This document shows positions 34,077 through 51,226 of a DNA stretch of 64,000 nucleotides, one piece after another. This stretch comes from Macrostomum lignano (taxonomy: Eukaryota), in contig NIVC01001070.1 in the NCBI GenBank assembly GCA_002269645.1, forward strand, positions 1-64,000, in the 5' to 3' direction. The number at the start of each line of letters is the position of its first letter. Position 1 is the first letter of the stretch. Below the pieces are notes generated by a model. The model was not told the origin of the DNA and did no database searches. It saw nothing but the letters and a program-made list of their open reading frames with translations. Position numbers and translations under genes: made by a program.

Positions 34077-34846
34077 TCAGCGGCGGACAAAGAAGTCGCC
34101 GCTGCTGGCGCTGCTGAGCGCGGCCGGGACCGCAGCGAACTCCAGCAGGTGGCACAGGCGCTGCAGCTGGCTAAAGATCACCGCTTGGCAACCGGAGCGA
34201 CACCGGTACAAGCACTCGGGCAGCCCAGCACACTGCAGTGTTCTGAAGGCGGGCGCATCCGGGAAGCTCAGCTCAACGAACGTCCGGTTACCGGGGACGA
34301 ACACGTTCCGGTCTGCAGATGTAGAATGGGGCCAGTTGCATTAACACCAAAGATTTCTACACAAAAAGCAAATTTTACTTTTAACCTACTCATGCAAGCG
34401 TCTTCTGAACTGCCCGTGTAACTCAGCCGGAGCACCCGGTTTCGAAATTCGCCTCCGCAGTTCTGGCCCCAGTTCCCACCGCAGACATGGCCGCACTCCC
34501 AGTAAGGAGCAGCGCCCAGCGACCCGTAGGAGTTGCCGCAGTGGCACCAGAATGCCGACTGCAGTGCCGCGAACTGGAAGCCGCCCAGAGCGCAGACGCT
34601 GCTGCACAGCTCGTGAGTCATCTGGCTGCTGCCGACAAAAGCGGTACCGGATTCGTATACCGGAGATACCTCGGAGCTGCCAATCCGGGTGATGCCAACG
34701 TTCTTCATGTCACTGACGGCTCTCGTTCCATTCGTGTATTCAAAGAAGCAGCCGAGATCCGAGATGTGGAACTGGCGGCAGAGAGCGGCGCAGATGAGGC
34801 AGCTCATGATCGGAGCGCAGAAGCAGGTCCTGTACAGAGCCGGCAT
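34077..34846 (-). CDS. Secreted WSC-domain plus PAN/Apple-like domain protein, 230 aa; complement(join(34077..34312,34390..34846))
   Basis: Hydrophobic, Cys-rich N-terminus, then WSC motifs (LGCFFE...MTHELCSSVC...FAALQSAFWCHCGN...CGHVCGGNWGQNCGG). A 77-nt GT-AG phase-1 intron (34313-34389) joins in frame to a C-x3-C...C-x2-C...VIF...CHL PAN/Apple-like exon. Confidence 0.8.
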
Positions 34847-36181
34847 GGCAGGCTGATTTCCAGTGCGATTTTCAGAGAAAATTGGCGGAGTTCGGACTCA
34901 AAGTAGAGAGAGAGCGGATTCGCAGCGAGAGGCCTCATCGCAGCTGTTTCAAGCGTATTATATTTGCTAGCACAGAGACAATGGGCCTTCAATACAGAAC
35001 CCATGACGGGTTCGCACAGCCGCGCGAGCCCTGATTGGAATCCGTTGGCTGCAGCCATTGCGTCAAAGCCAACAGGTGTGAATGAAAAATAGATTTAAAT
35101 CCATGAATTCCTGGGCTGCAGTTTCAGAAATATTTGCAGCAACAAAGCTTGCTGTGGGCCCTTCATCAAGGATGAGTTAGCACATATGAAATAACTGAGC
35201 GTCTAATTCAGACGCACAAGGATTTGTTGCACACCTTTGCGGCTCGCATATACTCGCGTTAGACGAGGCCAAGTAAGAAAAAAAGGGAAGTGAAGTGGCG
35301 CGCTTTATTCACTATAAATAATTTACATAATATAGAGAGAGCGATCGAGACAGTCCAATCAGAGGCTTCTGACGGACTGGTGCAAGGATTTTGCTAGAAC
35401 TAGAACCTGGACTAGAAACTTTTTTGTGGGGGCGAACTATCTTAGAAATAATAGGAAATTACTCGATCATATACGGCCCTGTTTGCACTTGCAAAACAAG
35501 TTCATTAGGTACCGAACCAAATGGTAGGGTATTCTACAGGTATACTTACACAATCCATACTGATACCCACAAAGAACGGAAGAAAAGACCCCAACTTGGA
35601 TCAACCAAGTTCTTCGAAAACTCTTCGATATATTTCTGAATTATAAGAATAGAATAGAGGCAAAATTTGTGTTGCAAACCGCCGTAGACAACACGAGTAA
35701 TATTCAGGGCACAACACATTTTGTTGACGAGGCCCACAACCAAGAGCATGCACTAAAAAGAATCGGATGCTACCACCGCGAGTCAGCTTGAAATACAATT
35801 AAAACAGCACCCAAATACCACAGTGACTCGTTCGATGGTCCTGAAAAGCACATCGACTGTAGGACTGTAGGTCCGAATTCGAAAATCCCCACATTTCCGT
35901 CCTATTCACCGTCTAATATTTTCGGGGGGACTTAAACTAAGCGATTCAAAATATTCCACGATTCGTCTTCCGCGACGACCAAACTCGTTTGCTACTCACC
36001 CCTTACTATCCAATGCCTACAAGGAAGCTTCGAAGTGTCTGTATCTAAGGTAATCGTCGAAGACCTCTGAACGTGTCCTGAGGATGCACACCCAAAAAGA
36101 CAACACCAAACAATCCCATACATAGATTTTTAATAATTGACCGCAAAAATCTATCACTGACACCCTGCAACATATTCAGCT

Positions 36182-36503
36182 TCACTTCCATGCTGTACCC
36201 GGCACGACGTCGCGAAGCTCCGTGATCTGCAGCTGCTTGTCAAATAGACAGCCGAATATTAAATTGTAGACAACGCTTGTTGCTTGAGCGAAGCATCCCA
36301 TCATGACACCCATCATATCGTCCTTGCAGATACAAGCCCAACTGCTGCAGCAGATAGGCATATTCTTTGAGACAACTACCTGCACCAAAATTCGTCTGCA
36401 GATCTGCAGTCTGCGAAGGGACGGACGCTTTATTCACAAACACACCAATGCTGTTGACATTTGCATGTTCAAAATTGAACTGATTTGTATCCATACTTAA
36501 CGC
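36182..36503 (-). pseudogene. Decayed C-terminal fragment of a second, divergent Polinton major capsid gene
   Basis: TNQFNFEHANVNSIGVFVN...EYAYLLQQLG aligns with HNPFNFEPFGADSVALYKD...EYAMLLKSLG of the intact MCP. After a deletion/frameshift, FAQATSVVYNLIFGCLFDKQLQITELRDVV* aligns with FSAALAAGINVLVFGYFDNTVQITRGRQVI. Confidence 0.7.
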
Positions 36504-36529
36504 TCTCCTCAGCTTGAAAGGCTGTACAC

Positions 36530-36965
36530 CGAGTTTAACTGCCGCTCCAGCGTAGCCGTCAGCGTCCAAGTCTCGGCGTAGGACGGTTTCGACCACCGCC
36601 TGCCACATCACTGAGCCTTCTGGCGGTCGGGCAGCGCTTCGGACTGGAGGACGGCTCGGATCGAACGGAAAGCCGCCCAGGCAAGTCCTCTGCGCCGCCG
36701 GACGTCCTTTCTAATCGTGGGGCACCACACCGCCGAGGTAGGTAACCGCTGGCAGCGTGCGAGCTTGATCGTTTGCCCGTCTGCGCCGCGGCAAGTCAGG
36801 TCCGCTGGGATGTCGGCCGGCAAGAACATTCAGCACCTCAATCTTCAGGGTGATGAAAACCAGACCGACGCTCGATGCCACCTCGACCAGCCTGCCGATT
36901 TGCTGCTGAGCGTCTTCAACGGACGAGGACAGGAGGGCGAGGTCGTCGGCGTAGCCAAACACGTT
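36530..36965 (-). pseudogene. Non-LTR retrotransposon (RTE-like) reverse transcriptase fragment, frameshifted
   Basis: YADDLALL catalytic motif, YLGG motif, then DVRRRRGLAWAAF...QAVVETVL thumb-region motif, spread over three frames. Confidence 0.85.
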
Positions 36966-37552
36966 CGGAGCGCTTTTCGCCGTGGTGGCGACTGATGCGT
37001 CTGCGCAAATAAAGCAAGCTAGAAAACTAAAAGGGAATTAAGAGAGTAGAAAATGAGATAAAATTGCAAAATTGGCCCGTTTACAGTGGGTTTGTGCAGA
37101 TGAGCAAAAGTGGAAGGGACAGCTAGCGGTCCCATGTACTGGAAGGGTACGTATCCAGCGGTTGGACCCGACATTTAGTCCAGGTGGAGCAATCAGATGA
37201 AAGGGAGGCCAACCCGAAGCAAAATAAATTCACGCTTTACGGGTCCTCAGTTAATGTAGGCCCTGAATAAAGAGCCATTGACCTGCGAGTTTTTGTCATT
37301 TTGTAATTCATAAATTATTTATGATTCATTGTTTATATCTCATCTCCGCCCTCTTAGAAACACCGCGGCTTCGGCGGCAAGGGGTCAATATAGGGGAGCA
37401 AACAAACACTTAGCATCAAATTTACTCCTACTAAACATTGATTGATTTCGATTTTAAACCGCACGCTTCACGGGTCCCCGAGTAAGTGTAGTGGCCCTTA
37501 AAAGGGATGTTTGAAGGATTTACCCGTTGCTTCTTCAAGCGAGTTTTTCAAA

Positions 37553-37684
37553 AGGTTCATGTTGAGAAGGATTCACATTGAGAAGGCTTCATGTTGAGAA
37601 GGTTTCATGTTGAGAAGGTTTCATGTTGAGAAGGTTTCATGTTGAGAAGGATTCATGTTGAGAAGGTTTCATGTTGAGAAGGAT
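37553..37684 (+). repeat. 16-bp satellite (CATGTTGAGAAGGTTT)n, left part (about 8 copies)
   Basis: Period 16 (GAGAAGG at 37564, 37580, 37596); interrupted by the Polinton-like element. Confidence 0.95.
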
Positions 37685-38279
37685 ACTACGTAACGCGTAG
37701 ATTGTTGTTGATTTTGGAGGTGAGGTGGGTGTCAGAGCCAATGCAAATTCAACGCCTATCTAAATACATTAGACCGATTCTAATTGGTCCAGAGTCATTA
37801 TGTGAGACATTTATACTCTCATGTAAAATCTATACATGTAATCAGTGTACACTGTATCGTACAGCAGCGACGAGTACAATATAGTACGCATAATTAGCGC
37901 TTCACAGTTGTTGTACGCAGAAGCGCGCGCGCCCCCATCCCCACACAATGCAGCATTGGTGTACGCAGAATTAACTGTCCATATTAACTGTCCATATACC
38001 AAAAATTGGCAGAATTAGAGCGCCCACCCACCCCATAACTGTCCATATTATTACTTGTCCATATTTACTGTCCATCCCAAAATTGGTGTACGCGCAGAAT
38101 TGTAGCGCCCGCCCACCCCATAACTGTCCATATTATTACTTGTCCATATTTACTGTCCATATATACACCCAAAATTGGTGTACGCACAGAATTGTCTGTG
38201 ACCCCCACAAAATTGGCGGCCCCACGCGGAGGCATGATGAGTCAGTCAGCCAGTAAATCGCCGCTGTCCACCCCTCTGC
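37685..38279 (+). repeat. Left terminal inverted repeat (595 bp)
   Basis: Reverse complement of 47318-47827, plus an internal ~85-bp tandem duplication (~38010-38186). Confidence 0.95.
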
Positions 38280-38868
38280 CCTGCGCTGGCCGCTATAGCT
38301 ACCTGCAGCAGTGTTACGCAACAACCCGGTCGAGCCACAATGCTAACTTTATAGCCAGACACGTCATCAAGGTCTGAAAACACAAACTTCTATGCATGAA
38401 ATATTCTCGTTTAACAAGATGCCAAACCAATTTTGTTCAGACAGCAAACTATAAATAAGAAAATTTGGATTCTCGGCCGTTTATCTAAATTCACCAAGTT
38501 CAATTAACAACCCAATCATGTGGAAAACGCAGTGTTGACAAGCAATTTTTGGTTGCCAAAGCACAAGAGGATCAGACCGACAAAGCATGAACTGCCAACA
38601 ACTTGGAGCAAGGATTTCAACACACCTCCAACGCCAGCACCGAAAATAGGTACAAGTCTCATTTTTTCTGGAATCCTCGATAACGACAACACCGTAAAAA
38701 GCTCGTTAACATGTAATTAAAACAAAAACTTATTGAGACTCTCGGGTATATAAGCACCAACCCGGAGCACCAAGCACCCGTACCTGCAAATTTTTCTCGT
38801 ATTCTCGGCAGTTTTTCAAGCTCGAATAACATCCCCACCACTAGTAGTGCGAACAACGCAGCAAGTGC

Positions 38869-39375
38869 TTGACAAGAAATGAGCTGGATTTCCAGAGACT
38901 ACCCCTATTATCGAACGAGGAAAAAGACGAATATGAGGCCTTGAAAAAATCTGCTGACTGGTTGTGCATTTGCCACAGCAAACCGATTTCCGAGCGATTA
39001 GTCACCTTCAATGCCAAGGTCGAGGAAATTGATCAAGGCCCCTACGACAGCCAAGACTACGCAGCAGCCAGGATAAATGAGCAACTACGGGACAAAATGA
39101 GATTCAAAGCTGATTTAGCACGAATGGAGAGATTACTGGCTCCGATACTAAGTGAAGAGCATCGCCAAAAAATACGTTTTCGGAACCATCAAGATCTGTA
39201 TAATCCGTCGTGGGAGGAGCAACAAAAGATTTGGAATTTTTGGCTGCCAAAGCACAAGAGGAACAGGCCGCCAAAGCTTGAACTACCAGCAACTTGGAGC
39301 AAGGATTTCAGCACACCTCCAACGCCAGCACCCGAAAATAGGAACAAAAGGTTCATTTTTCCGGAATCTCGATAA
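38869..39375 (+). CDS. Element ORF1, unknown function (no in-frame ATG start; possibly a fragment)
   Basis: 168-codon open frame with protein-like composition inside the element; its 3' part is duplicated at 38544-38700. Confidence 0.45.
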   Translation: MTRNELDFQRLPLLSNEEKDEYEALKKSADWLCICHSKPISERLVTFNAKVEEIDQGPYDSQDYAAARINEQLRDKMRFKADLARMERLLAPILSEEHRQKIRFRNHQDLYNPSWEEQQKIWNFWLPKHKRNRPPKLELPATWSKDFSTPPTPAPENRNKRFIFPESR

Positions 39376-39507
39376 CGACAACTCTGTAAAAAGCTCGTTA
39401 TCGTGTAATTAAAACAAAAACTTATTGAGACTCTCGGGTATATAAGCACCAGCCCGGAGCATCTGCAAGCGCCCGTACCTGCAAATTTTTCTAAACAGAC
39501 AAGAGAC

Positions 39508-40259
39508 ATGGAGACAGTGCAAGACTTCAACTGCGTCAAGCGAGAGCTGCTGGCACTCAAACCGCGAGGTCCGAGCTTCAACGGGGTTGAAACGTTTGAC
39601 ATTGAATATGACGAACAGGGACCTCTCTACTTGGCCAATGCGGTCCCTGTTTTGATCGTCAAGGGCGTGCGTACTGACAACGAAGGTCGCGAATTCATCA
39701 TCATTGCACAAAAACACATTGAAGCTGCATACCCTACACTTTCAACACTGTGGCGGAGCACCTTTCCAGCGAAAGTCTAGCTCTGCTGGGCTACAACCCA
39801 GCGTTTGGAGGTGACAGTGCAGCGTTTGGGCTGGCTCACGACTTTAAAATGTACGACCAAAACGGACTGCCTGTAGAGGATTACAAAAACAAGAGCGGCT
39901 ACTACAGGATTCTGTTTACTCTCGACACGGCCGTGATTCGAGACGCTGTTTTGACCGCAATGCCAAAAATTCAACAGCTACAGTTTGTCGAAGAAGCCAA
40001 ACAGGCATTCGATCGTTGCTATTGGACGCCACCTCCAAAAATCAAGGTAGGCGCCAAGAAAGTAAGCAAGAAAGCAAAGAAACCACCAAAGCTTGTCAAG
40101 GAGAAGCAGCCAAAGGTGCCTAAAAATCAGGCCAGAAAGCGACAGCATCAATCGAAACTAGTAGCAGCCAACGAATCAAAGAAGCGGTCGAAAGCCCCCA
40201 AGAAGGATACGAAAGTAAAAACTGCCGAAAAATCTACTTGCAGAACGTCGAGTGTGTGA
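39508..40259 (+). CDS. Element ORF2 split by a -1 frame change (39508-39780 and ~39723-40259); possible OB-fold ssDNA-binding protein with Lys-rich tail
   Basis: ATG 70 nt after a TATATAAG box; the two frames overlap at 39723-39780. The C-half FKMYDQNGLP...KSGYYRILFTLD...PKIQQLQFVEE has a beta-strand pattern resembling T7 gp2.5/NCLDV-type SSBs (by eye only). Confidence 0.45.
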
Positions 40260-40717
40260 ACCGAGTGTTTTGCGCGAAATGGAGCCGCATGCCTGACTTG
40301 GACTGGGCGAGCGCACGGACATTTCGCAGACCAAGAGCTCTTATCAATTTGCGAATAGGAAAATGTACAATCAACTTTTTTCAGCGTTCTTTGTCTGCAA
40401 TTGTATTCGGTTGTCGCTCAGTCAACCAAGTTTTGCGTCTTTTTCCTCAATGTAAACCAATTTCTGTTGTTGTTACCACTAGTACTTACCGCGCTGAAGT
40501 AGACAGATGGCCAAACTTTTTCCAAATTGCATACTCCGGGTCCCGCTGGGTGAAGTGGGAGTGTGAAGTTTTCAATGGAATAGTAATAAAGTCTCCATTT
40601 CGCAATGCTAAATGTTTATTATGCGGAAAGAATGGCCGCCTTGTTTTCCTTGGAATACGAAACTTTAAAGAGCTCTGTCAAATGTACGATCATGTGACTA
40701 GCGTTTTGCATGTCTAA
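40238..40717 (+). CDS. Divergent TATA-binding-protein-like (two-repeat TBP fold) protein
   Basis: Collinear match to the TBP core: LQNV~LQNI; [28 protein letters not shown]~[41 protein letters not shown]~[38 protein letters not shown]~[26 protein letters not shown]. First ATG at 40289; the frame is open from 40124. Confidence 0.7.
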   Translation: [159 protein letters not shown]

Positions 40718-40857
40718 TCCATGTAGCTGTTGCGTAACTTTACTGCTTTACCACTGTACCGAATTTGTATGTACGTACAAGCTGCTATGAAATTGTCTAT
40801 AAATATATTGTGCATAAATTGCAGTGCACTGCAACCAACATCTTTTTGCTAAACAAA

Positions 40858-41214
40858 ATGACAAACGGAATCTCCAGACTATGTTCTTGTCGCGGCGAGC
40901 TCGCAGAGCTCGCCAAAGCCCGTCCCGCTCTTCGGCGGGCCATTATTCGAGGTGCAGGCAAGGAACTGATTCATTGTCTCTGTGAATTGAGTCACAACGT
41001 GCTCCGGGGAAATATCGATCTTTCTCCGAAACAGTATCTGCGATTAAAGCGATACAGAAGATCGTTGCGTGAATTGGCAGACACAAAATTGTCTATAAAT
41101 AGGAAGAAGAATATGCTTCTCTCGAATCCTCAAGTCGGTGGCTTTCTACCCATCCTTGCATCTGTTGCTGCACCGCTAATATCAAGCCTGTTTGGCGGAC
41201 TACTTGGTCGCTAA
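40858..41214 (+). CDS. Small basic virion-associated protein with Gly-Gly adenain-type cleavage sites (118 aa)
   Basis: ATG at 40858 after CTATAAATA; Arg/Lys-rich middle; C-terminal QVGG|FLPILASVAAPLISSLFGG|LLGR hydrophobic peptide of the kind seen in Polinton small core proteins. Confidence 0.75.
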   Translation: MTNGISRLCSCRGELAELAKARPALRRAIIRGAGKELIHCLCELSHNVLRGNIDLSPKQYLRLKRYRRSLRELADTKLSINRKKNMLLSNPQVGGFLPILASVAAPLISSLFGGLLGR

Positions 41215-41215
41215 A

Positions 41216-41866
41216 ATGAATAAATACGTTGTTGTACCAGAAGAAGAATTTAATAGACTAAGTCAAGGCGCACCCCGAGAAATTGCATCCAAAACAGAAT
41301 ATGAAAAACTCATTGAATACAACACTCAACTCCAAAATAAACTAAGTCAGATCAAGCAAAAGAAGAGTAATCGTTTTCCTGAACGACAACAACGTGTTTG
41401 GGACATGCTGACAGAAAGATACCCAAATTTGGAGTACAACAAGTCGTGGGAAATTGTATTTGATGGAAAAACCTGGCCAGGAAGCAATATTTTCGATCTA
41501 TTGAAGGAGATTACATCGAATGAAAGGCGCGACCGCCCAAGCCCAAAATATAGTACCGCTTTTTGGGCCCTGGCCGAAGAGGCAGATATTGCAAAAGCTC
41601 TACTAGGACGACGCCAACAAGAAGAAGTCAGTGTGAAAAAAGAAGTCGGCACGGATCCGGATCGAGACGATTTTTTAGTCGAGCAAGCAATTGGAACTAA
41701 TGATTTCTACAACGACTTCCACAAAGACCAAGCCAGTGGCCTGAATGAAATTAAAAAATATGAAGATCGTGGCAGCAATGCCTACAGGCATGCTTCATAC
41801 CAACTTCGCGAACCAAAGAGGCGGCAGAAACCAGCAGTAAAATACGAGACGTTAAAAAAACTATAA
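41216..41866 (+). CDS. Polinton-type accessory protein, unknown function (216 aa)
   Basis: ATG 2 nt after the previous stop; KYVVVPEEEF N-terminus, coiled-coil, and a PGSNIFDLLKEIT motif of the kind seen in Maverick accessory ORFs. Confidence 0.7.
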   Translation: MNKYVVVPEEEFNRLSQGAPREIASKTEYEKLIEYNTQLQNKLSQIKQKKSNRFPERQQRVWDMLTERYPNLEYNKSWEIVFDGKTWPGSNIFDLLKEITSNERRDRPSPKYSTAFWALAEEADIAKALLGRRQQEEVSVKKEVGTDPDRDDFLVEQAIGTNDFYNDFHKDQASGLNEIKKYEDRGSNAYRHASYQLREPKRRQKPAVKYETLKKL

Positions 41867-42003
41867 ATAGAAATCATTTTCATGATTTATAATCTGTTTT
41901 TGGATCATGGGTGCCGCAGCTGTAACTTCAAAGCTTTGCTCAGACAAACCGTCTGTGGAGTTCAAGTGTAATTACTCATGCTGTGCATCGAATCTAGTTG
42001 CGA

Positions 42004-43071
42004 ATGAGGGTGAAAACCGCTCTTCGGAGAGTGTACGAACAGGGGGACGCCGCTTTTACAAATGCTGCCCGTGTATATCAGGAGGCCAAACGGCTGGTCC
42101 CCTCCCTGACGAGACGCCAAACAGACGAATGGCTGAAGACCCAATCGAGCTACACCCGGCACAAGAGGGTTAAAAGAAAATTCCGAACCGGAAAAGTAAT
42201 GTCGGGAGGCTTCATGGAAACTGTGCAAGCGGATTTGATGGACATGTCGCGATACGAACAATGGAATGATGGTCATCGATATATTCTAGTTGCAATTGAC
42301 GTGCTTAGTAAATTGGCTTTTTGTCAGTCAATAAAATTGAAAAGCGACACTCCAAAGGCTTTTGAAAGCATGATCAAAGACTTCCCCATTAAGCCTTTAT
42401 ATCTACACGTTGATCGAGGTACCGAGTTTTATAACAATCGCATGCAGAACTTACTGAAAGCCCATAATATCAAAATGTACAGTACAAACTCTGTATACAA
42501 GGCAAATATGGCTGAAAGGCTGATTAGGACTCTCCGAAAACGTTTAGCTCGCTACTTTGAGCATAAAAACACGTGGCGTTGGATCGACTATTTGCCAATA
42601 TTGGTTAAAAGTTACAACAACACAGTACACTCTACTATTGATATGAAACCTTCGAGTGTCGGTCTGCACAATCAAAAAGAATTGTGGGAAAAGCTCTACA
42701 AGGATCCTGAATATGATGAACCAGTTTACCAAAAAGGGGACTTTGTCAGAATTTCAAAATCTCGTCGAGCCTTTGACAAGGAAGCATACGATATGTACAG
42801 CGAAGAAGTTTACGTTGTGTCTCAAGTATGCCCGGGACCGCCTCATTTTTATCGCATTTCCGACCTATCTGGAGAACAAATCGAGGGTCGATTCTACTAT
42901 AATGAACTTTCAAAGACGGTTCGACCGGACCGCTTTGTTATAGACAAAATTCTGCGTCGCAATGTCATCATCAATGGTGTCGCTCATCATTTCGTTAGTT
43001 GGCGCGGCTATCCCGAGTCGTTCAATGCATTTGTACCAGTTGAGGAAGTTATAAATATAAGACAAGGATGA
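42004..43071 (+). CDS. Retroviral-like (RVE, DDE) integrase with C-terminal chromodomain-like region (355 aa)
   Basis: Catalytic QADL..., HVDRGTEF and AERLIRTLR motifs; YNNTVHSTI; C-terminal IDKILRR...FVSWRGYPESFNAFV. Confidence 0.95.
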   Translation: MRVKTALRRVYEQGDAAFTNAARVYQEAKRLVPSLTRRQTDEWLKTQSSYTRHKRVKRKFRTGKVMSGGFMETVQADLMDMSRYEQWNDGHRYILVAIDVLSKLAFCQSIKLKSDTPKAFESMIKDFPIKPLYLHVDRGTEFYNNRMQNLLKAHNIKMYSTNSVYKANMAERLIRTLRKRLARYFEHKNTWRWIDYLPILVKSYNNTVHSTIDMKPSSVGLHNQKELWEKLYKDPEYDEPVYQKGDFVRISKSRRAFDKEAYDMYSEEVYVVSQVCPGPPHFYRISDLSGEQIEGRFYYNELSKTVRPDRFVIDKILRRNVIINGVAHHFVSWRGYPESFNAFVPVEEVINIRQG

Positions 43072-43105
43072 ACACACATACACTCGAAACGTGTAGTATA
43101 TTACA

Positions 43106-44260
43106 ATGCATCTATTCCTACCTAGCAATGCGTGCGTTGAGCACTATCCTGAGAATAATTCGGCACATTATAGCATTAATTTGCCCGACACCCTCCACTT
43201 TCCGAATCATGAAGTCTGCATCGAACGGATCTACTTTTGTAAAGAATTCAAAACCGTCCCCGATAATCGAATGGTTGATGTCCTGACCAACGCTCCCGAG
43301 GATGAAGTGATTGACATTGAGGTGAGAGAAAAACCCGCCTCCACGTATAAACAGTTTGCGTCGGTTTCTCTCGCCGCGGGGCTATCAACAGCCAACGAAG
43401 TGGTTGATGCAATCATCGCCGATCTAAAATATGAGCAAGACGATAATGCGATGATTTGCATTGAGCGTTCACAGGAAGGCCAAATTTCAATTGTGAACAA
43501 ATCATGGTATGGTGCGAACATTAGGCTGTCCAGTAATGTGCGTAGCATGTTTAAAAAGGTTGATGACGCTGGAAATAAATCAAATATCGAAGTAACGACT
43601 TTTTTATTAAACCCAAGAAATTCGTTAGTATTCGCTATAGAATTGGAGTCCTCCTCCTCCATAGAGAGTCCGATGACTCTAACGTTTGAAAAGAGTGTCT
43701 GGCCTTCTAGAACGTCACTGCGGATTGCTAAAGGATTCTACCGCACGCCTGATGAGCTCTTAAATTATGTTAATGGAGCGCTTTGGGGCGTCGTTTCAAA
43801 GCTCCCAATAAGTCCAGCGACGAGAGTGGATGCATTCCGCTACAACCCTTTTCTGAACCGGTGTGAGTACAAACCCATTGAAAACATTTTATTCGACATT
43901 GGAGAGCTTGCTGCCATTCTCGGCTTTCGCGAAGATGTTTTCAATGAAACTCCAAAGACCGCTAAACGACCAATCGATTTAACAAATGGTGTACAAACTA
44001 TGTACATCTATTCAAATATTGTCGACTCTGCCATTGTTGGAGACGTCAAAGTCCCCCTGCTTGGGGCAATTCCTTTGAATGAAAAGGTATACGGCGAACG
44101 AGAGTACTACGAGTTTGTCAATCCATCCTACTTACCGTTGGTGAAACACCCATTCAAAACCATTGAGGTGCAAATCTGTGACGATATGGGCAAGTTAATG
44201 GATCGGATTCTTCGAGGCAAAACTGTTTTATCGATCAACATTCGTGAAATTAAGCTATAA
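43106..44260 (+). CDS. Minor capsid protein (penton, single jelly roll), 384 aa
   Basis: N-terminal LFLPSN...YPENN...YSINLP and C-terminal YIYSNIVDSAIVGDVKVPLL...YLPL...IEVQICDDMG motifs typical of Polinton pentons; sits between integrase and MCP. Confidence 0.85.
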   Translation: MHLFLPSNACVEHYPENNSAHYSINLPDTLHFPNHEVCIERIYFCKEFKTVPDNRMVDVLTNAPEDEVIDIEVREKPASTYKQFASVSLAAGLSTANEVVDAIIADLKYEQDDNAMICIERSQEGQISIVNKSWYGANIRLSSNVRSMFKKVDDAGNKSNIEVTTFLLNPRNSLVFAIELESSSSIESPMTLTFEKSVWPSRTSLRIAKGFYRTPDELLNYVNGALWGVVSKLPISPATRVDAFRYNPFLNRCEYKPIENILFDIGELAAILGFREDVFNETPKTAKRPIDLTNGVQTMYIYSNIVDSAIVGDVKVPLLGAIPLNEKVYGEREYYEFVNPSYLPLVKHPFKTIEVQICDDMGKLMDRILRGKTVLSINIREIKL

Positions 44261-44304
44261 ATAAAGAAGTTTTCACGAATAAAAGGTAGCAACTGATCGA
44301 CAAT

Positions 44305-44673
44305 ATGCCTTCAATCTTGATCGGAGGAGCTTTACCGGTATTTTCCGGTGCACAGCGCGGCAACGGCCTGTTTGGCAGCATTGCCCGATTTGCCCTGCCA
44401 ATTTTAAAGAGTTTTGGCAAAAATATTCTTCGCCACGGAACACGAGCCCTAGCTACAACAGTTAGCGACACACTCGATCAAGGCGGGAACTTGAAAGAAG
44501 CGGCATTGCGTAACTCTGTCCAGGCAGCTAAAGATGCTTTCAAGGACACAGTCGCACAACGAGGTAGCGGCAGACAAAGACGAAGAAAGATGACTAACAA
44601 AAAAACGAGAAAAAGACTGCAGCATTCTGATATTTTCGACTCTATAAATAAAAAAACCCGTGCCAATAACTGA
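44305..44673 (+). CDS. Small core / membrane-active precursor protein (122 aa)
   Basis: LIGG|A and QRGNG|LFGSIARFALPILKSFGKNIL amphipathic segment; Arg/Lys-rich C-terminus QRGSGRQRRRK; lies directly upstream of the MCP. Confidence 0.75.
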   Translation: MPSILIGGALPVFSGAQRGNGLFGSIARFALPILKSFGKNILRHGTRALATTVSDTLDQGGNLKEAALRNSVQAAKDAFKDTVAQRGSGRQRRRKMTNKKTRKRLQHSDIFDSINKKTRANN

Positions 44674-44716
44674 TCTGTCTATTAGAGCACCACACTAAGC
44701 CGCTGTTGAATGAAAA

Positions 44717-46000
44717 ATGACTGAGTGCCTGTGTACAAAGTCGGAATTCGAGCTTTTTGCTCCTCGCGCACACCAAATTGCTGCAATTAGCGCCACCACT
44801 GAAGAAGTTCACCCTGTTGCCAGTGTTGAAAATGCCAGCGTGGTCGAATTTAGGATTGTTGGTGGTGAGACGTTTATCGATCTTAACGACATTGACCTCG
44901 AGATTAAGGCCCGCGTTAAGCAGTCTAATGGTACAAATCTTGCTGCTGATTCGAATGTTGCGCCGGTCAATTACGTCCTTGAAAGCATGTTTAAAAACGT
45001 CACGTTGACAATCAACGGGACACACGTAGAGTCGAGCAATAACAACCACGCTTACAAGGCCTATATTCTCACGTGTTTGAATTACGGACACGATTCAAAA
45101 ACTAATCAACTGAGAATGATGGGCTACGCAAAGGACGCTGGAGGTCAAATGGCTGTGGTTGGAAATCCTGGCTTTGTAGCCCGCAAGGCGATGGCGGCAA
45201 ACTCACGCACCTTTCACCTTTATGGACCTCTTAGTTTAGACTTTTTTGTTACCAACGACCGAATGCTACTGCCATACACTGATATGGTAATTACGCTGAC
45301 CATGCACAATTCCGGCTTCGTTCTGGAAAACCACGCGGACGGGGTTGATGCGCGGCTAGTACTCGAGAGTGCCAAACTACATGTGCGCCGCGTCAAGGCA
45401 AACCCCCAATTGGCATTGGAGATTGAAGAACAACTAGGCAAACAGAATGCAATCTATCCGATTGAGCGACTTGTTGTGCACAATACTTCAGTGGCTGGCG
45501 GTGTTCGGGACATGTCAATCAATAATATATTTCCTGAACAAAAGCCTAAACTAGTGGTTGTTGGCATGGTGAACAGCGGCGCATACAACGGTGTGGCTAC
45601 ACATAACCCGTTTAATTTTGAACCGTTTGGGGCAGACAGTGTCGCTCTGTATAAGGACGGAGTCAGTCTGTGTGGACAACCGTTTACTCCTCGATTCGGT
45701 GTTCATAACTATGCTCGCGAGTATGCCATGCTACTAAAAAGCCTAGGAAAGATGAATCGGGACCTTGATATTGACGTATCATATTCCGACTATGGAGCTG
45801 GCTACTGCTTCTTCGCCTGGAATCTCATGCCCGACATGGAGCTGGGCGGGCATAGCATGCCTCGCGAGCGAGGGAATCTGACGCTACAAATAAAGTTTTC
45901 TGCTGCCTTGGCCGCAGGAATCAACGTGTTGGTGTTTGGCTACTTTGACAATACTGTGCAGATCACTCGCGGTCGTCAGGTTATTCTAGACTACGTGTAG
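44717..46000 (+). CDS. Major capsid protein (double jelly roll, hexon-like), 427 aa
   Basis: SEFELF...HP...VEF...FIDL N-terminus; PKLVVVGMV...AYNG...NPFNF...YAREY...GYCFFAWNL...G.L.L.IKF motifs of Polinton MCPs; uninterrupted ORF. Confidence 0.92.
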   Translation: MTECLCTKSEFELFAPRAHQIAAISATTEEVHPVASVENASVVEFRIVGGETFIDLNDIDLEIKARVKQSNGTNLAADSNVAPVNYVLESMFKNVTLTINGTHVESSNNNHAYKAYILTCLNYGHDSKTNQLRMMGYAKDAGGQMAVVGNPGFVARKAMAANSRTFHLYGPLSLDFFVTNDRMLLPYTDMVITLTMHNSGFVLENHADGVDARLVLESAKLHVRRVKANPQLALEIEEQLGKQNAIYPIERLVVHNTSVAGGVRDMSINNIFPEQKPKLVVVGMVNSGAYNGVATHNPFNFEPFGADSVALYKDGVSLCGQPFTPRFGVHNYAREYAMLLKSLGKMNRDLDIDVSYSDYGAGYCFFAWNLMPDMELGGHSMPRERGNLTLQIKFSAALAAGINVLVFGYFDNTVQITRGRQVILDYV

Positions 46001-46050
46001 AAACAAACATCTCTTTTTTATTCTCGAATAACGACCATATTCATGCCGAT

Positions 46051-46500
46051 ATGAATAGTCTAGATATATTAGAACGTCTAATACTACCTGTCCCTGTTCG
46101 AGTAACACCAGTTGACAGGATTCCGCAGCCTGTTTATCCTGCTGCATACGTGATTAACTTTGACACTGGCAATCTACCAGGCACTCACTGGGCTTTAATT
46201 TGTCTTCATGCCGATGAGAGCGTGACATTTTTTGACCCCTTGTGTATCGATCCTGTGCCAGATTTATTAAAGTTGTGGATCGCAAAGTATGTCCCTGTGG
46301 AGGTGGCCATGAACCGGCATCCTGTACAGCATCAGCTAAGTGTGACCTGCGGGGCTCATGTAATATTTGTGGCTGAAAAACACTTTCTGGAGGGTCTGTC
46401 AATTGAAAAAATATTGCGCGACTGTTATAGCACAAATCTTTACGAAAACGACTTGATGGTGCAGAATCACTGTCTACAAATAAAGCAGCATCATCCATAA
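46051..46500 (+). CDS. Adenain-like (clan CE) cysteine maturation protease, 149 aa
   Basis: INFD...GTHW (His), FFDP (Asp), QHQLSVTCG (oxyanion Gln, catalytic Cys). Confidence 0.92.
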   Translation: MNSLDILERLILPVPVRVTPVDRIPQPVYPAAYVINFDTGNLPGTHWALICLHADESVTFFDPLCIDPVPDLLKLWIAKYVPVEVAMNRHPVQHQLSVTCGAHVIFVAEKHFLEGLSIEKILRDCYSTNLYENDLMVQNHCLQIKQHHP

Positions 46501-46502
46501 AT

Positions 46503-47153
46503 ATGATTGGGCTGCCTATCAAAATGTATCAAACAATAGACCCCGACTCTTTAAAATTTGCCCCCAAAACGTCGGCAATTTTTGCTGGGGTGGCTCAAAG
46601 CGGCAAGACCACACTTGTGAAAAACCTATTGAGACAAGAATTTTTTCAAGATCCGAAGCCGATTCGCGTAGACTGGTTTGGCCACTATCCGGATCCTGAA
46701 CTGTTTGAATTGCCGTACCCTGTAAATTTTCGTTCGTGTACATTTGATCCTGAACAATATGTCCCTGAACCAAATATTCTGCTTGTCGTCGACGACCAAA
46801 TGCATGCCATGGAAAAGAGTGGCGCTTTTACAACTTTTTTCACGCGCAAAGTCTCCCACGTGGGGTTCCGACTTTGGTATCTTGTGCAAAACCTGTTTGC
46901 AAAGGGTAAGGAGCACCGAACTCAGTTGCTCAATTCGAACTACCTTGTTTTATTCCGCAATGTACGGGATGCCAGCACAGTGTCTCATATTGCAAGGCAG
47001 CTGGTCCCCACTAATCCAAAAAGTTTTGTCAAAACGTATGAGGATGCTACTCGCGACCCCTACTCATACTTGATTGTAAACTGTTTGCAAAATGCTCCTG
47101 CTCGCTATTATTCAAACGTTTTGGGTCGTCACCCAATTGTGTATGCTAAATAA
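46503..47153 (+). CDS. A32/FtsK-like genome-packaging ATPase, 216 aa
   Basis: Walker A GVAQSGKTT, Walker B LLVVDD, YLVQN and LFRNVRD motifs, and a terminal PYSYLIV motif. Confidence 0.93.
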   Translation: MIGLPIKMYQTIDPDSLKFAPKTSAIFAGVAQSGKTTLVKNLLRQEFFQDPKPIRVDWFGHYPDPELFELPYPVNFRSCTFDPEQYVPEPNILLVVDDQMHAMEKSGAFTTFFTRKVSHVGFRLWYLVQNLFAKGKEHRTQLLNSNYLVLFRNVRDASTVSHIARQLVPTNPKSFVKTYEDATRDPYSYLIVNCLQNAPARYYSNVLGRHPIVYAK

Positions 47154-47317
47154 ATATACGTATCAAAGTTCGGCCGGCTTTTTGTGTAAATATATATACG
47201 CCTTTTGAAAACTTATTTGGGAGAGGGGTTGGGGGATGACGTAATTGTCTCGGAGTGTCGACGAGGGCTGAATTCTAGAGGGATGGAGTATGGTGTGAGT
47301 GGAAATAACAGGCTGCA

Positions 47318-47827
47318 GCAGAGGGGTGGACAGCGGCGATTTACTGGCTGACTGACTCATCATGCCTCCGCGCGGGGCCGCCAATTTTGTGGGGGTCACA
47401 GACAATTCTGTGCGTACACCAATTTTGGGTGTATATATGGACAGTAAATATGGACAAGTAATAATATGGACAGTTATGGGGTGGGCGGACGCTACAATTC
47501 TGCCAATTTTTGGTATATGGACAGTTAATATGGACAGTTAATTCTGCGTACACCAATGCTGCATTGTGTGGGGATGGGGGCGCGCGCGCTTCTGCGTACA
47601 ACAACTGTGAAGCGCTAATTATGCGTACTATATTGTACTCGTCGCTGCTGTACGATACAGTGTACACTGATTACATGTATAGATTTTACATGAGAGTATA
47701 AATGTCTCACATAATGACTCTGGACCAATTAGAATCGGTCTAATGTATTTAGATAGGCGTTGAATTTGCATTGGCTCTGACACCCACCTCACCTCCAAAA
47801 CCCAGCAGTTTTGGCGCGATACGTAGT
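47318..47827 (+). repeat. Right terminal inverted repeat (510 bp)
   Basis: Reverse complement of the left TIR without the 85-bp duplication. Confidence 0.95.
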
Positions 47828-48648
47828 AAGGATTCACATTGAGAAGGCTTCATGTTGAGAAGGATTCATGTTGAGAAGGTTTCATGTTGAGAAGGCTTCA
47901 TGTTGAGAAGGATTCACATTGAGAATGCTTCATGTTGAGAAGGCTTCATCTTGGGAAGGTTTCATGTTGAGAAGGTTTCATGTTGAGAAGGCTTCATCTT
48001 GGGAAGGTTTCATCTTGAGAAGGTTTCATGTTGAGAAGGCTTCATGTTGAGAAGGTTTCATCTTGGGAAGGTTTCATGTTGAGAAGGTTTCATCTTGGGA
48101 AGGTTTCATGTTGAGAAGGTTTCATGTTGAGAAGGTTTCATGTTGAGGTTTCATCTTGAGAAGGTTTCATGTTGAGAAGGCTTCATCTTGGGAAGGTTTC
48201 ATCTTGAGAAGGTTTCATGTTGAGAAGGTTTCATGTTGAGAAGGCTTCATGTTGAGAAGGTTTCATCTTGGGAAGGTTTCATGTTGAGAAGGCTTCATCT
48301 TGGGAAGGTTTCATGTTGAGAAGGTTTCATGTTGAGAAGGCTTCATCTTGGGAAGGTTTCATGTTGAGAAGGATTCATGTTGAAAGGTTTCATGTTGAGA
48401 AGGCTTCATCTTGGGAAGGTTTCATGTTGAGAAGGTTTCATGTTGAGAAGGTTTCATGTTGAGAAGGTTTCATGTTGAGAAGGTTTCATGTTGAGGTTTC
48501 ATCTTGAGAAGGTTTCATGTTGAGAAGGCTTCATCTTGGGAAGGTTTCATCTTGAGAAGGTTTCATGTTGAGAAGGTTTCATGTTGAGAAGGCTTCATCT
48601 TGGGAAGGTTTCATGTTGAGAAGGCTTCATGTTGAGAAGGTTTCATCT
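47828..48648 (+). repeat. 16-bp satellite, right part (about 51 copies)
   Basis: Same unit as 37553-37684, with CATCTTGGGAAGG variants. Confidence 0.97.
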
Positions 48649-49260
48649 GTGTTGCGAGGATCTTGAATCAACTCCCATGGACTGAATGGCATGGCTGAAG
48701 TCGAGTGAGAACTGCTTCAGAGAGCCCGTGGCTCTGGCTTGCTGTCACAGCTATTAATCACATAATACCTGGCATAAAAAGCCACTCCAACTGCCTGGCT
48801 GTAGTTGACATTGTTTTCTACTGGTCTGGCCAAGGCAGAGTGAAAAGATTTTAATTGAATTTCAGTGATAATATTCTTAATTGAATCATTTGTTAAGTCG
48901 TATTTTTGATATAGCTTCAGAATTTTCGAAGTCGATTCTTCTAAGACAATTTAATACTGATAGTAGTACGCTCGTACTTGAGACGCATTGCATGCAGAGC
49001 TATATGCAGTCAGCAGATGCACAAATAAAATCAGTGGTAAATTTTCTTGTCCTCAATTTATTTCAAATTGTTTTATCTAACCATAAGTTGGAAAATATGG
49101 GAAGCTACTCAGACGAGCGTAAATAGAGAAATTAAAACGTAACGCTATAATGAGAAAATTCTGATTAACAGTAGGAATACCAAGCCATTTTCCCATCCGT
49201 CAAACTACCAAGAGGGGGGATTCCCTGACAATTTTTTTGCTGTGCAGCAACGGAGCAACG

Positions 49261-50675
49261 GGTCTATGAAATTTGCTAGCAGGAAATCTGCTAGCCGAAG
49301 TTTGCTAGCGAGAAATTTGCTTGCCGAAATCTGCTAGCCGAAGTTTGCTAGCCGAAATCTGCTAGCCGAAATTTGCTAGCCGAAGCTTGCTAGCGAGGAT
49401 TTTGCTAGCCGAGATTTGCTAGCGAGAAATTTGCTTGCCGAAATCTGCTAGCAGGAATTTTGCTGACCGAACTTTTTGCAACTGGCGTCAAAAGATTGCT
49501 TGTTTTCTGGCAATGGCAATGCATTGTTTTAGCTAAAAAAAATCCAGAGAAGTGGGTAAAAATCCCAAATATTTTATAACTAAAAGCATCAGCATCAGTT
49601 CAAGTGCTTGGAAAGTCAGTTTGTCATTGTGGGGGACAGAATACTCTCAAGTCGCAATCAGATAGCTCGTAGTTAGGACAGTATTTGAATTCCTTACTGA
49701 ACTGTCATGGCTAAACGTTAGCAGAGAAGGCTATAAAAAGTTATTCCAAAACACTGTACATTTGCTATGTACATTGAGCCCTATCACCTGATCCTTGGTC
49801 TGGGGGAATGAGTGAGTGAGTAGCACAAACAACAGAAAAAGCAGACAAACTTCACATGCCTATAGTTTCTGTTCTAACTGAGGTACAAAGTTGAGACTAT
49901 ATTTAGACAGAGAATGAGTCAATGAAGAATTGTATCAAGTTTGAAGTCAATCGCTGTACGTGGAGCAAACTTATGGCAGCTGAAAGTTAGTTAATTTTAA
50001 ACCCCCTTCACAAATCTGTCCATTGGTCAGGAAGGAGAGAGGCGGAGGTTGGGATGGCTGTCTCGCTGACGAAAAGCAGACTAACTTTAAAAGTACACAG
50101 ACCATTTTCCAGCGGGAGTGCCGTTAGGAATTAACTTCGAGACTCGAAACTTTATACACGCGGATTATCAAAATGGTTGAAAATTGGATTGTGTCCAATT
50201 TGAAGAGGATTGGTAAAGGTAAAAATGGAGCGACGCTATGGAGGATTTAGTGAAATTCTTGCGAAACTGGACAAGCAAATTGTCTCTAAGCTAATTACTA
50301 CTTCCTGAGTTCGGCTAGCCAAATTGCTGCTTGCCGGTTTTGGTTGGATTCCTGCTAGCAGATTTCGGCTAGCTAAATCCTCGCTAGCAAAATTCCTGCT
50401 AGCAGATTTCGGCTAGCTAAATCCTCGCTAGCAAAATTCCTGCTAGCAAGCTTCGGCTAGCAAATTTCGGCTGGCAGATTTCGGCTAGAAGATTTCGGCT
50501 AGCAAACTTCGGCTAGCAGATTTCGGCAAGCAAATTTCTCGCTAGCAAACTTCGGCTAGCAGATTTCGGCAAGCAAATTTCTCGCTAGCAAACTTCGGCT
50601 AGCAGATTTCGGCAAGCAAATTTCTCGCTAGCAAACTTCGGCTAGCAGATTTCCTGCTAGCAAATCTCGTACTCC
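49261..50675. mobile_element. Non-autonomous Mutator/foldback-type element with repeat-built TIRs
   Basis: GG...CC ends; inverted arrays of (AAATTTGCTAGCCG)-like units at 49268-49470 and ~50320-50666; flanking direct repeat CGGAGCAACG / TGGAGCAACG (9 of 10 identical). Confidence 0.75.
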
Positions 50676-51226
50676 TGGAGCAACGTAAGGACAGAAAGTC
50701 CTGCCTCAGCATATGTGGTGCGACTGCATGCCTTGGGGGACCGCAGAAAAGAGGGGCATGGGTTGCAAAAACGAAGAACGGTACCACCTGATTATGTTCG
50801 GTTAAACGTCCATACAGTATATATCAACGGTGGATATTTTGTTTCGAGGCATGCAAACTCAGAAAAGGATAAACCTGGCACAATTACTAAAAATAAAAAT
50901 GCATCCATGCAACTGCAAATAATAAAGATCAATCGGTCTGCTTAATTATAGGCAATAAATACATTTGGGTTTAATTCTAAATATAATAATCCTTGATATA
51001 ATATAGTCTTTGGATTGGATTCATGATCGATCGAATTTGCAGGGCATCCATGCACGATCGGAGCTAGAGAATGGCATTGCAATGTGTCATAAGATCTAGA
51101 GATGGGCCTTAACTGGGTTACGAAAGCATTACATAGAAAAAAGAGTGTTGCCTTAATTACAATGTAATGTTGGCCTCATCCAGTTCCCAGAAATGTAAGG
51201 AGTAACAGTCACTATACAGACCCAAT

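Follow-up and report, generated by a model that had tools for sequence, protein, structure and literature searches.

The locus described here raises three linked questions: whether a mobile element of the Polinton type encodes a TBP of its own, how translation of such a gene is started, and what the protein would do for the element. An initial annotation of the window (the whole stretch of Macrostomum lignano DNA analysed, 64,000 nt) had read the frame at 40124-40717 as a TBP-like gene carried by a Polinton-like virus. The frame is real, running open from stop to stop over 197 aa, and profile, Foldseek and VIA comparisons agree that it encodes a whole two-repeat TBP saddle.

The carrier element

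The frame lies within an element whose limits and genes are listed below. C114 denotes a contig with a pPolB-bearing Polinton of the same genome, and A and B are the two subfamilies of the window element; both are described further on.

37685..47827, no strand: whole Polinton-type element, 10,143 bp, with the 6-bp duplication AAGGAT on both sides and termini ACTACGT...ACGTAGT
37685..38279, no strand: left terminal inverted repeat, arms 96-99% complementary to 47318-47828 (481/568 columns identical)
38879..39375, + strand: ORF1, protein of no known family, broken in the window copy (open 21 codons from its ATG)
39508..40259, + strand: ORF2, 180 conserved codons up to a donor-like site, then a basic tail differing between subfamilies; frameshifted near 39720 in this copy
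40858..41214, + strand: small basic protein, 77% identical in subfamily B, dN/dS 0.06
41216..41866, + strand: ORF for a 216-aa protein with no family assigned
42004..43071, + strand: retroviral-type integrase (Pfam rve, E 2.5e-8; weak chromodomain match)
43106..44260, + strand: probable penton, named for its position and size only, the position being as in passages of PMC4028283
44305..44673, + strand: ORF for a 122-aa basic protein with no family assigned
44717..46000, + strand: probable major capsid protein, matching the ORF that occupies the capsid position in the C114 Polinton (29% identity, E 6e-31)
46051..46500, + strand: probable adenain-type protease, placed by gene order, with no Pfam match of its own
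46503..47153, + strand: packaging ATPase with recognizable Walker A and B, matching the C114 ATPase at E 7e-20
47318..47827, no strand: right terminal inverted repeat, pairing with the left arm

All main genes are on the + strand, between inverted repeats about 500-600 bp long, and a 16-bp satellite encloses the element (37552-37682 and 47828-48646). Polinton ends are typically AG-rich. The window element, with its ACTAC termini, its length of 10.1 kb, its TBP gene and its lack of pPolB or any other replicase, differs from Polintons, Mavericks and adintoviruses (passages of PMC4028283 and PMC8502044), which it resembles in having inverted repeats, a 6-bp duplication, an rve integrase, an ATPase and a probable capsid, penton and protease in the usual order. 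Of the features by which Polintons are recognized, the inverted repeats with their 6-bp duplication, the retroviral-type integrase and the packaging ATPase were all found and pPolB was not, the window being without a tblastn match (E<=1) to a pPolB of the same genome. Tlr elements and helicase-type MELD viruses likewise have integrase, ATPase and capsid genes without pPolB, but they carry a superfamily 1 helicase, which in Tlr elements takes the place of pPolB (passages of PMC4028283); a Pfam scan of the element ORFs gave no such helicase, and no ORF is left for one, the longest + strand ORF between the inverted repeats being 428 aa. The Polinton-like carrier first proposed therefore stands in a qualified form: judged by its gene content, the element is a pPolB-less Polinton derivative rather than a canonical Polinton, and appears to keep the whole integration and particle-building module. 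Present in about 40 near-identical copies and lacking a polymerase, it would have to replicate with help in trans or spread without DNA synthesis of its own.

Pfam and other family searches gave no match for the probable penton, and Pfam, PHROG and PDB sequence searches none for the probable capsid. ORF2 matched nothing in Pfam, PHROG, PDB or ESM Atlas, and its model has a pLDDT of 31. ORF2 may be akin to OB-fold single-strand DNA-binding proteins, the small basic protein at 40858..41214 may be PW-like, and 46051..46500 appears to carry motifs of an adenain-type protease. The C114 gene in the position of the probable protease has a weak Peptidase_C5 match (E 0.0026), and an ORF similar to the small basic protein is recognizable by eye in the C114 Polinton.

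Ninety matches to the TBP region were found in the genome among 95 candidates. Subfamily A comprises 21 near-full copies at 96-100% identity, two of them with a stop in the TBP region, and subfamily B comprises 21 near-full copies at 78% identity, none with a stop; the remaining matches are fragments. Capsid and ORF2 matches lie on the same contigs as the TBP region, at constant spacing. In the window copy, ORF1 and ORF2 are broken and the TBP region is open; ORF1 is open for 134-179 codons in the 16 other subfamily A loci in which its ATG was found, the ATG being unmatched in 4 of 21. Twenty runs contain the stretch, none of them recorded as RNA and 14 guessed to be RNA, and the four followed here are assembled contigs, which drop rare forms and show neither level, strand nor start. 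Since all four differ from the window at the ORF2 break, the window copy is either dead or misassembled at that point. Two runs also show a joint going back 629 nt at an internal duplication (38544-38797 and 39235-39492, identical in 234 of 261 columns) that in subfamily A copies the TATATAAG promoter considered below.

The rest of the window is of mixed content. Long degenerate repeats occupy 800-23100, with GA-rich blocks, 30-bp units and short interstitial (CCCTAA)n at 12418, 16200 and 17695, and a foldback-like element with 14-bp subrepeat arms about 1 kb apart lies at 49250-50686. Other coding matches are a WSC-domain ORF (34268-34897, - strand, E 3e-11), a weak reverse-transcriptase fragment (36240-37037, - strand), pieces of a DEAD-box helicase split by a 48-bp tandem array (58410-60424, + strand), and a 408-aa ORF with a Mab-21 C-terminal match (61962-63191, - strand, E 1.6e-6), possibly a cGAS-like receptor.

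The TBP-like protein and its relatives

40244..40717, + strand: TBP-like coding region, 157 codons, full saddle by profile, AlphaFold, Foldseek and VIA; intact in the window copy

Single-sequence searches with the TBP region gave nothing in Pfam, PDB (phmmer) or ESM Atlas. A profile of six relatives of the window TBP returned 35 distinct PDB sequences, and all 35 are TBP or TBP-containing fusions (best E 2e-6). AlphaFold modelling of 40244-40714 gave a best model of pLDDT 75 among five, the remaining four having values of 39-48. Foldseek matched the AlphaFold model to TBP over both repeats (E 2.7e-8, query TM-score 0.65-0.75 in TBP rows), and VIA placed model residues 1-157 on yeast TBP 64-236 with a Z of 13.2 and an rmsd of 3.5 A over 151-155 of 157 residues, the next unrelated fold having a Z of 6.5. 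The TBP saddle expected at the outset is thus what both fold comparisons returned. Pfam TBP gives no match for the window protein and 22.4 bits (E 1.1e-4), against a cut-off of 22.9, for a subfamily B copy. Relatives occur in four outside records at 67% (P0002 and P0003), 64% (P0004) and about 40% identity (P0005), and of these P0004 alone passes the Pfam cut-off; P0006, a repetitive 552-aa chance match, was rejected as a relative and kept out of every alignment. Viral contigs yielded no relatives for queries A1, A4, capsid, host TBP or ORF2, and metagenome contigs none for A1 or P0005. Among viral TBP-fold proteins in BFVD there are 17 matches at E<=0.001, the best being the Heterosigma akashiwo virus TBP (1.5e-8), and herpesvirus BcRF1 and UL87 are among the weak fold matches of the model.

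The window protein shares with the cellular TBP family (Pfam PF00352: TBP, TRF2/TLF, archaeal TBP) the two-repeat saddle over the full core, the acidic repeat-2 stirrup and two of the four intercalating Phe. It differs in being 15-21% identical to family members (17-20% to host TBP) and about 16 residues shorter, in having lost two Phe, in lacking an N-terminal extension and a start of its own, and in being borne by a mobile element. In repeat 2, the F of EVFNG aligns with the first TBP Phe and the second is replaced; in repeat 1, the Phe of INFF is kept and the other is lost, an assignment made by hand alignment to the model strands because MAFFT misaligned this repeat. The retention of two intercalating Phe and replacement of two, as claimed initially, is borne out with this difference in method, and the canonical four-Phe set of a TATA-binding TBP is therefore incomplete, one Phe remaining in each of the pairs described in passages of PMC3142196. 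On the TFIIB side, the two Glu (E-x-E) of the repeat-2 stirrup are invariant in 13 of 13 rows, including host TBP; acidic stirrup residues are critical for TFIIB according to section 16 of PMC12529657.

Collinearity with both TBP repeats also holds, but the point at which it had been said to begin, LQNV against LQNI, is uncertain. That strand-1 register is the best against host repeat 1 (scores of 16 and 21 versus 3 and -3), whereas a register five residues further on is favored by the internal-repeat score (13 versus -23 and -21) and by the structural range, in which model residue 1 corresponds to yeast residue 64 and the model does not include LQ.

Between subfamilies A and B the dN/dS of the TBP region is 0.086 (dS 1.65), alongside 0.081 for ORF2 and 0.036 for the capsid, with synonymous sites near saturation. 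A ratio near 1 and disruption in the other copies had been named beforehand as the signs of a spurious gene; the ratio is not near 1, and the near-full copies are mostly open. We conclude that this Polinton-type element encodes a true, very divergent TBP-fold protein under selection.

Other TBP genes are present in the same genome. Pfam TBP gave 150 scored matches out of 330 candidates, twelve of the rows being host TBP and a TRF2-like gene at three loci each. These two genes (L031-L042) are intronless over the core, in three copies each. Of 13 other TBP places read, 12 fall into a single multi-copy family and the remaining one into a third lineage. Seven contigs have a TBP row and a pPolB row no more than about 3.5 kb apart. 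The pPolB-bearing Polinton at C114:461400-473283 (L079, L052, L044) contains an integrase, a probable penton, a probable capsid, a protease-like gene, an ATPase, two small genes, an ORF and a TBP-like gene, followed by pPolB head-on. The TBP of this Polinton starts at an ATG of its own and is aromatic at each of the four Phe positions, and the ORF ahead of it, which may be a DEDD exonuclease, has no Pfam match. The third multi-copy TBP-like lineage, represented by L058 (C1769:130391-130981), has about 24 near-full matches at 81-100% identity. At L060 (C3017) and L061 (C4486), which belong to two different families, an upstream ORF and a TBP-like ORF form one continuous frame, of 391 and 375 codons respectively; both are single copies and may be assembly errors. 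The attribution of a TBP to a Polinton is upheld, then, but it is not peculiar to the pPolB-less element, as pPolB-bearing Polintons of the same genome carry a second lineage.

In a tree of 21 rows, which left out three of ten archaeal TBPs, five of the ten loci L048-L057 and the giant-virus TBPs, all 12 non-cellular rows fall on one side with support of 95/96 and a long-branch warning; because long branches meet, the shared side is not proof of common origin. Of the proposed comparison with host and giant-virus TBPs the tree addresses the host part, and the joining of the window family to host TBP is weakly rejected (p-AU 0.04). Profile A1 matches the profile of the pPolB-bearing family at E 3.5e-8 and host TBP at E 2e-4, the one value being profile versus profile and the other profile versus single sequence. 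That a single genome has three lineages of TBP-like genes, two or more of them carried by Polintons, suggests a lasting regulatory module in some Polintons and not a one-off capture. Giant-virus TBPs and poxvirus VITF-3 are also viral TBP-fold factors; VITF-3 serves a viral RNA polymerase (PMC12917281), whereas the window element encodes none and so must use that of the host.

The start of the TBP-like frame

The first ATG of the frame, at 40289, is unfit as a start, as had been suspected, the codons upstream of it being conserved and subfamily B having no Met before codon 147. Within codons 1-15, which lie upstream of this ATG, there are 5 synonymous differences among the 11 residues shared by A and B. 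Because these 15 codons are conserved as protein and subfamily B lacks a Met until codon 147, translation must start upstream of the first ATG, where the following features are located (a slash marks a junction):

40044..40051, + strand: donor-like site AAG/GTAGG at the end of ORF2 homology, in 31/31 loci examined
40047..40243, + strand: spacer, candidate intron or outron, 197 nt here and 66-206 nt in other copies
40238..40243, + strand: acceptor-like site TTGCAG, also a candidate TTG start (TTG at 40238), in 31/31 loci

The 31 loci are 30 taken from the genome matches to the TBP region, together with L061, which was picked for its long frame. In all of them, and in both subfamilies, TBP homology begins at TTGCAG/AAC in phase with the end of ORF2 at AAG/GTAGG. 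The identity of these sites is not beyond background (p about 0.12 for the donor-like and 0.06 for the acceptor-like site), and with the strand-1 register scores this weakens a reading of LQ as a splice site only. The spacer is purine-rich, has no pyrimidine tract, and is open and lysine-rich in the ORF2 frame. In all four runs, the RNA status of which is guessed, contigs cross the spacer unspliced, and none joins 40046 to 40244 or has a loose end at 40244.

A spliced leader ending in AUG has been published for Macrostomum lignano, and TTGCAG fits the host trans-splice motif [T/C]TNCAG (passages of PMC8629364), although words of this type occur 13 times in the 9,038-nt element interior. The leader pattern has 121 matches in the genome (control 0), and leader genes end in ATG/GTAAG in three of four places read, a fifth place having no donor. 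Leader sequence without a donor after it is found at L062 and L067, which are probably retrocopies of trans-spliced RNAs, as perhaps are many of the 121 matches.

Cis-splicing, a leader-donated AUG and initiation at the TTG are each predicted to give an in-frame product. Cis-splicing would join ORF2 to the TBP region in a protein of about 337 aa, the unspliced RNA encoding ORF2 with its basic tail. In both subfamilies ORF2 homology stops at the donor-like site and TBP homology starts, in phase, at the acceptor-like one; cis-splicing is the expected fate of an acceptor that has a donor upstream (passages of PMC8629364); and L061, with the selection noted above, reads straight through. These points are offset by the missing joint in 4/4 runs, by a spacer that is open and lysine-rich in the ORF2 frame, and by the absence of any longer protein with a fused TBP domain among 6,852 candidates (weak evidence), while the background-level site identity and the lack of a pyrimidine tract count against splicing of either kind, so that we put cis-splicing forward tentatively, as somewhat short of an even chance. 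Trans-splicing of the host leader onto TTGCAG, with its final AUG initiating a bare TBP core of 158 aa, is possible but doubtful. The leader ends in ATG, the acceptor-like site fits the motif, and the join is in frame and has the entire core (yeast residues 64-236) downstream of it; in Schistosoma, AUG starts supplied by the leader are on report (passages of PMC9851317), and operons are common in this host type (passages of PMC8629364). Yet a leader-like loose end is absent in 4/4 runs, the upstream donor-like site would compete, and the motif is found 13 times in the element interior.

Near-cognate initiation at TTG 40238 on an unspliced RNA agrees with the contigs, all of which were seen unspliced. 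Both subfamilies retain the TTG, the start called for the relative P0002, by an unstated gene caller and at an unstated codon, falls at this position too, and LQN is a TBP motif in the register first proposed. The TTG is however 730 nt behind the ORF2 ATG with no TATA word between, it has a pyrimidine at -3, and the ORF2 stop falls before or after it depending on the copy, and we regard such a start as improbable. A programmed frameshift from ORF2 could draw on the overlap of the frames and on a short A-run kept just upstream, but spacer length falls in all three frames across copies: modulo 3 it is 1 in 17 loci, 2 in 13 and 0 in 1, and the shift needed is +1 in 17, -1 in 13 and none in 1. The frameshift was rejected on this ground and is very improbable; of the starts named in the initial annotation, TTG and splicing remain as candidates and the frameshift is disfavored.

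Promoter words and a possible role for the protein

39439..39446, + strand: TATATAAG box, candidate early promoter of the ORF2/TBP unit, with GGGTATATAAG kept at the matching place in subfamily B
40798..40805, + strand: TATAAATA box, one of seven (38450, 40798, 41094, 41862, 43050, 44256 and 44643)

The ORF2/TBP unit is preceded by GGGTATATAAG in both subfamilies, and a further copy of TATATAAG lies at 38747, within the local duplication. TATAAATA is absent ahead of the TBP unit. Six of its seven copies lie 49-142 nt ahead of the ATG of two small genes, the integrase, the penton, the 122-aa basic gene and the capsid; subfamily B has counterparts of all seven, six of them 43-141 nt ahead of the matching genes. 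The protease and ATPase genes have no exact TATAAATA, and several copies overlap AATAAA. The wider word YTATAAATA occurs eight times in the window, seven of them inside the element (shuffle mean 1.28, maximum 5), and in the element interior it is found seven times on the + strand and never on the - strand (shuffle mean 0.15). TATAAATA is the top 8-mer of the element, yet its count of seven lies within what the most frequent word, of whatever kind, reaches in shuffles (mean 4.9, maximum 10). Both element boxes fit the cellular consensus TATA(T/A)A(A/T)(A/G) (PMC2396422), and host TBP alone could therefore drive both.

In the sampled pPolB-bearing family TATAAATA does not mark genes. There, in L079, TTAAGA(A) occurs nine times on the gene strand, four copies lying 38-109 nt ahead of the first ATG of the integrase, capsid, ATPase and PW-like genes, a count not beyond that of the best 7-mer in shuffles. 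The TBP loci L048-L057 of that family, 10 of 10, have the same word near position 400-450, and it recalls the baculovirus TAAG late motif.

By analogy with viral TBP mimics, we think it somewhat more probable than not that the TBP-like protein is an early factor for the late promoters of the element, recruiting host TFIIB and polymerase II. Host TBP, acting at the TATATAAG box, would drive early transcription of ORF2 and the TBP region as a single unit, and the spliceosome would use TTGCAG to provide the TBP region with a start. That start would come either from a join to ORF2 or from the added host leader, the last three bases of which, AUG, would be in frame with the TBP region. The TBP-like protein would bind the TATAAATA boxes, its kept acidic motif would recruit host TFIIB and polymerase II, and expression of the capsid, penton and integrase genes would be raised late, in the manner of herpesvirus TBP mimics at TATT promoters; for DNA replication a polymerase would have to act in trans, for example one from the pPolB-bearing Polintons of the same genome. 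The earlier suggestion that the element redirects or replaces host TBP at its own promoters is no more than plausible; both boxes fit the ordinary TATA consensus. The herpesvirus likeness, a virus-encoded TBP fold together with a distinct AT-rich late promoter word, is an analogy only: KSHV ORF24 contains additional domains, acts together with five more viral factors, recognizes TATT and is without the acidic TFIIB residues (PMC12529657), whereas the window protein is a bare 157-aa core that has kept its Glu, its box is canonical, and it does not have the marks of the ORF24 family.

The late-promoter role draws on the fold, the dN/dS of 0.086 and the conserved codons 1-15, on the invariant stirrup Glu (13/13), and on TATAAATA being kept in subfamily B despite near-saturated synonymous sites while absent ahead of the TBP unit; its splice step draws on the in-phase donor- and acceptor-like sites of 31/31 loci and on the ATG/GTAAG of leader genes. 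It has to contend with an early class consisting of one promoter, with a TATAAATA count within the shuffled range and no exact copy for the protease and ATPase, with the different behavior of the sampled pPolB-bearing family, and with the lack of a splice joint or loose end in 4/4 runs. Two of the observations against it, that both boxes fit the cellular TATA consensus and that two Phe are missing, which a TBP unable to bind TATA would also be expected to show, are those from which a rather unlikely alternative starts, namely that the protein is a decoy or TRF2-like factor, binding TFIIB or other TBP partners and not TATA, and damping or redirecting host transcription while host TBP reads both boxes. 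The loss of two Phe with the acidic stirrup kept would suit such a factor, and TRF2/TLF binds TFIIA and TFIIB but not TATA (passages of PMC3142196). A decoy nonetheless leaves unexplained why, in both subfamilies, one promoter word goes strictly with the TBP unit and another with six other genes, and KSHV ORF24 binds DNA with a remodelled surface (PMC12529657). There is hardly any likelihood that the gene plays no role, whether as a passenger in decay or as a host TBP captured recently: the two broken upstream ORFs of the window copy and the stops in 2/21 subfamily A matches could be read in that way, but the dN/dS of 0.086 refutes it in the main, and the 17-20% identity to host TBP, the weakly rejected host grouping (p-AU 0.04) and the relatives at 40-67% identity in four other records also stand against it.

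A bolder extension of the late-promoter role, and as a whole quite improbable, has the replicase-less Polinton controlling the passage from early to late expression by itself, through a minimal TBP that takes its initiator codon from the host spliced leader. TBP and promoter word would then form a matched pair in every Polinton lineage, the word being TATAAATA in the window element and possibly TTAAGAA in the pPolB-bearing one. In Starrett et al. (10.1101/697771; PMC8502044) the legend of Fig. 5 includes the abbreviation 'TBP', indicating a TBP gene in a related virus group, without discussion in the available passages of that paper, and one of its supplements has no match for TBP or TATA. TBP genes are described in mirusvirus-like elements, not Polintons, in passages of PMC10675990, and PMC12220804 contains nothing relevant to a Polinton TBP. 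No other precedent for a Polinton TBP, and no leader-donated start codon in a DNA virus gene, was found in literature searches that left aside figures, bioRxiv supplements and most subscription journals. Neither viral TBPs nor Polintons are new in themselves; the literature searched gave no description of a TBP module that belongs to animal Polintons, sits in a replicase-less family and lacks a start codon of its own.

If the leader-donated start and the switch were both true, activation of the capsid genes would depend on trans-splicing by the host, for which enrichment in stem-cell genes has been reported in this host type. For Polintons themselves, the matter at issue is the timing of capsid expression, and hence whether and when particles form, and a TBP gene with a matching conserved promoter word makes this question testable. 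A bare 157-residue TBP with half its Phe is also a natural probe of what TATA recognition needs.
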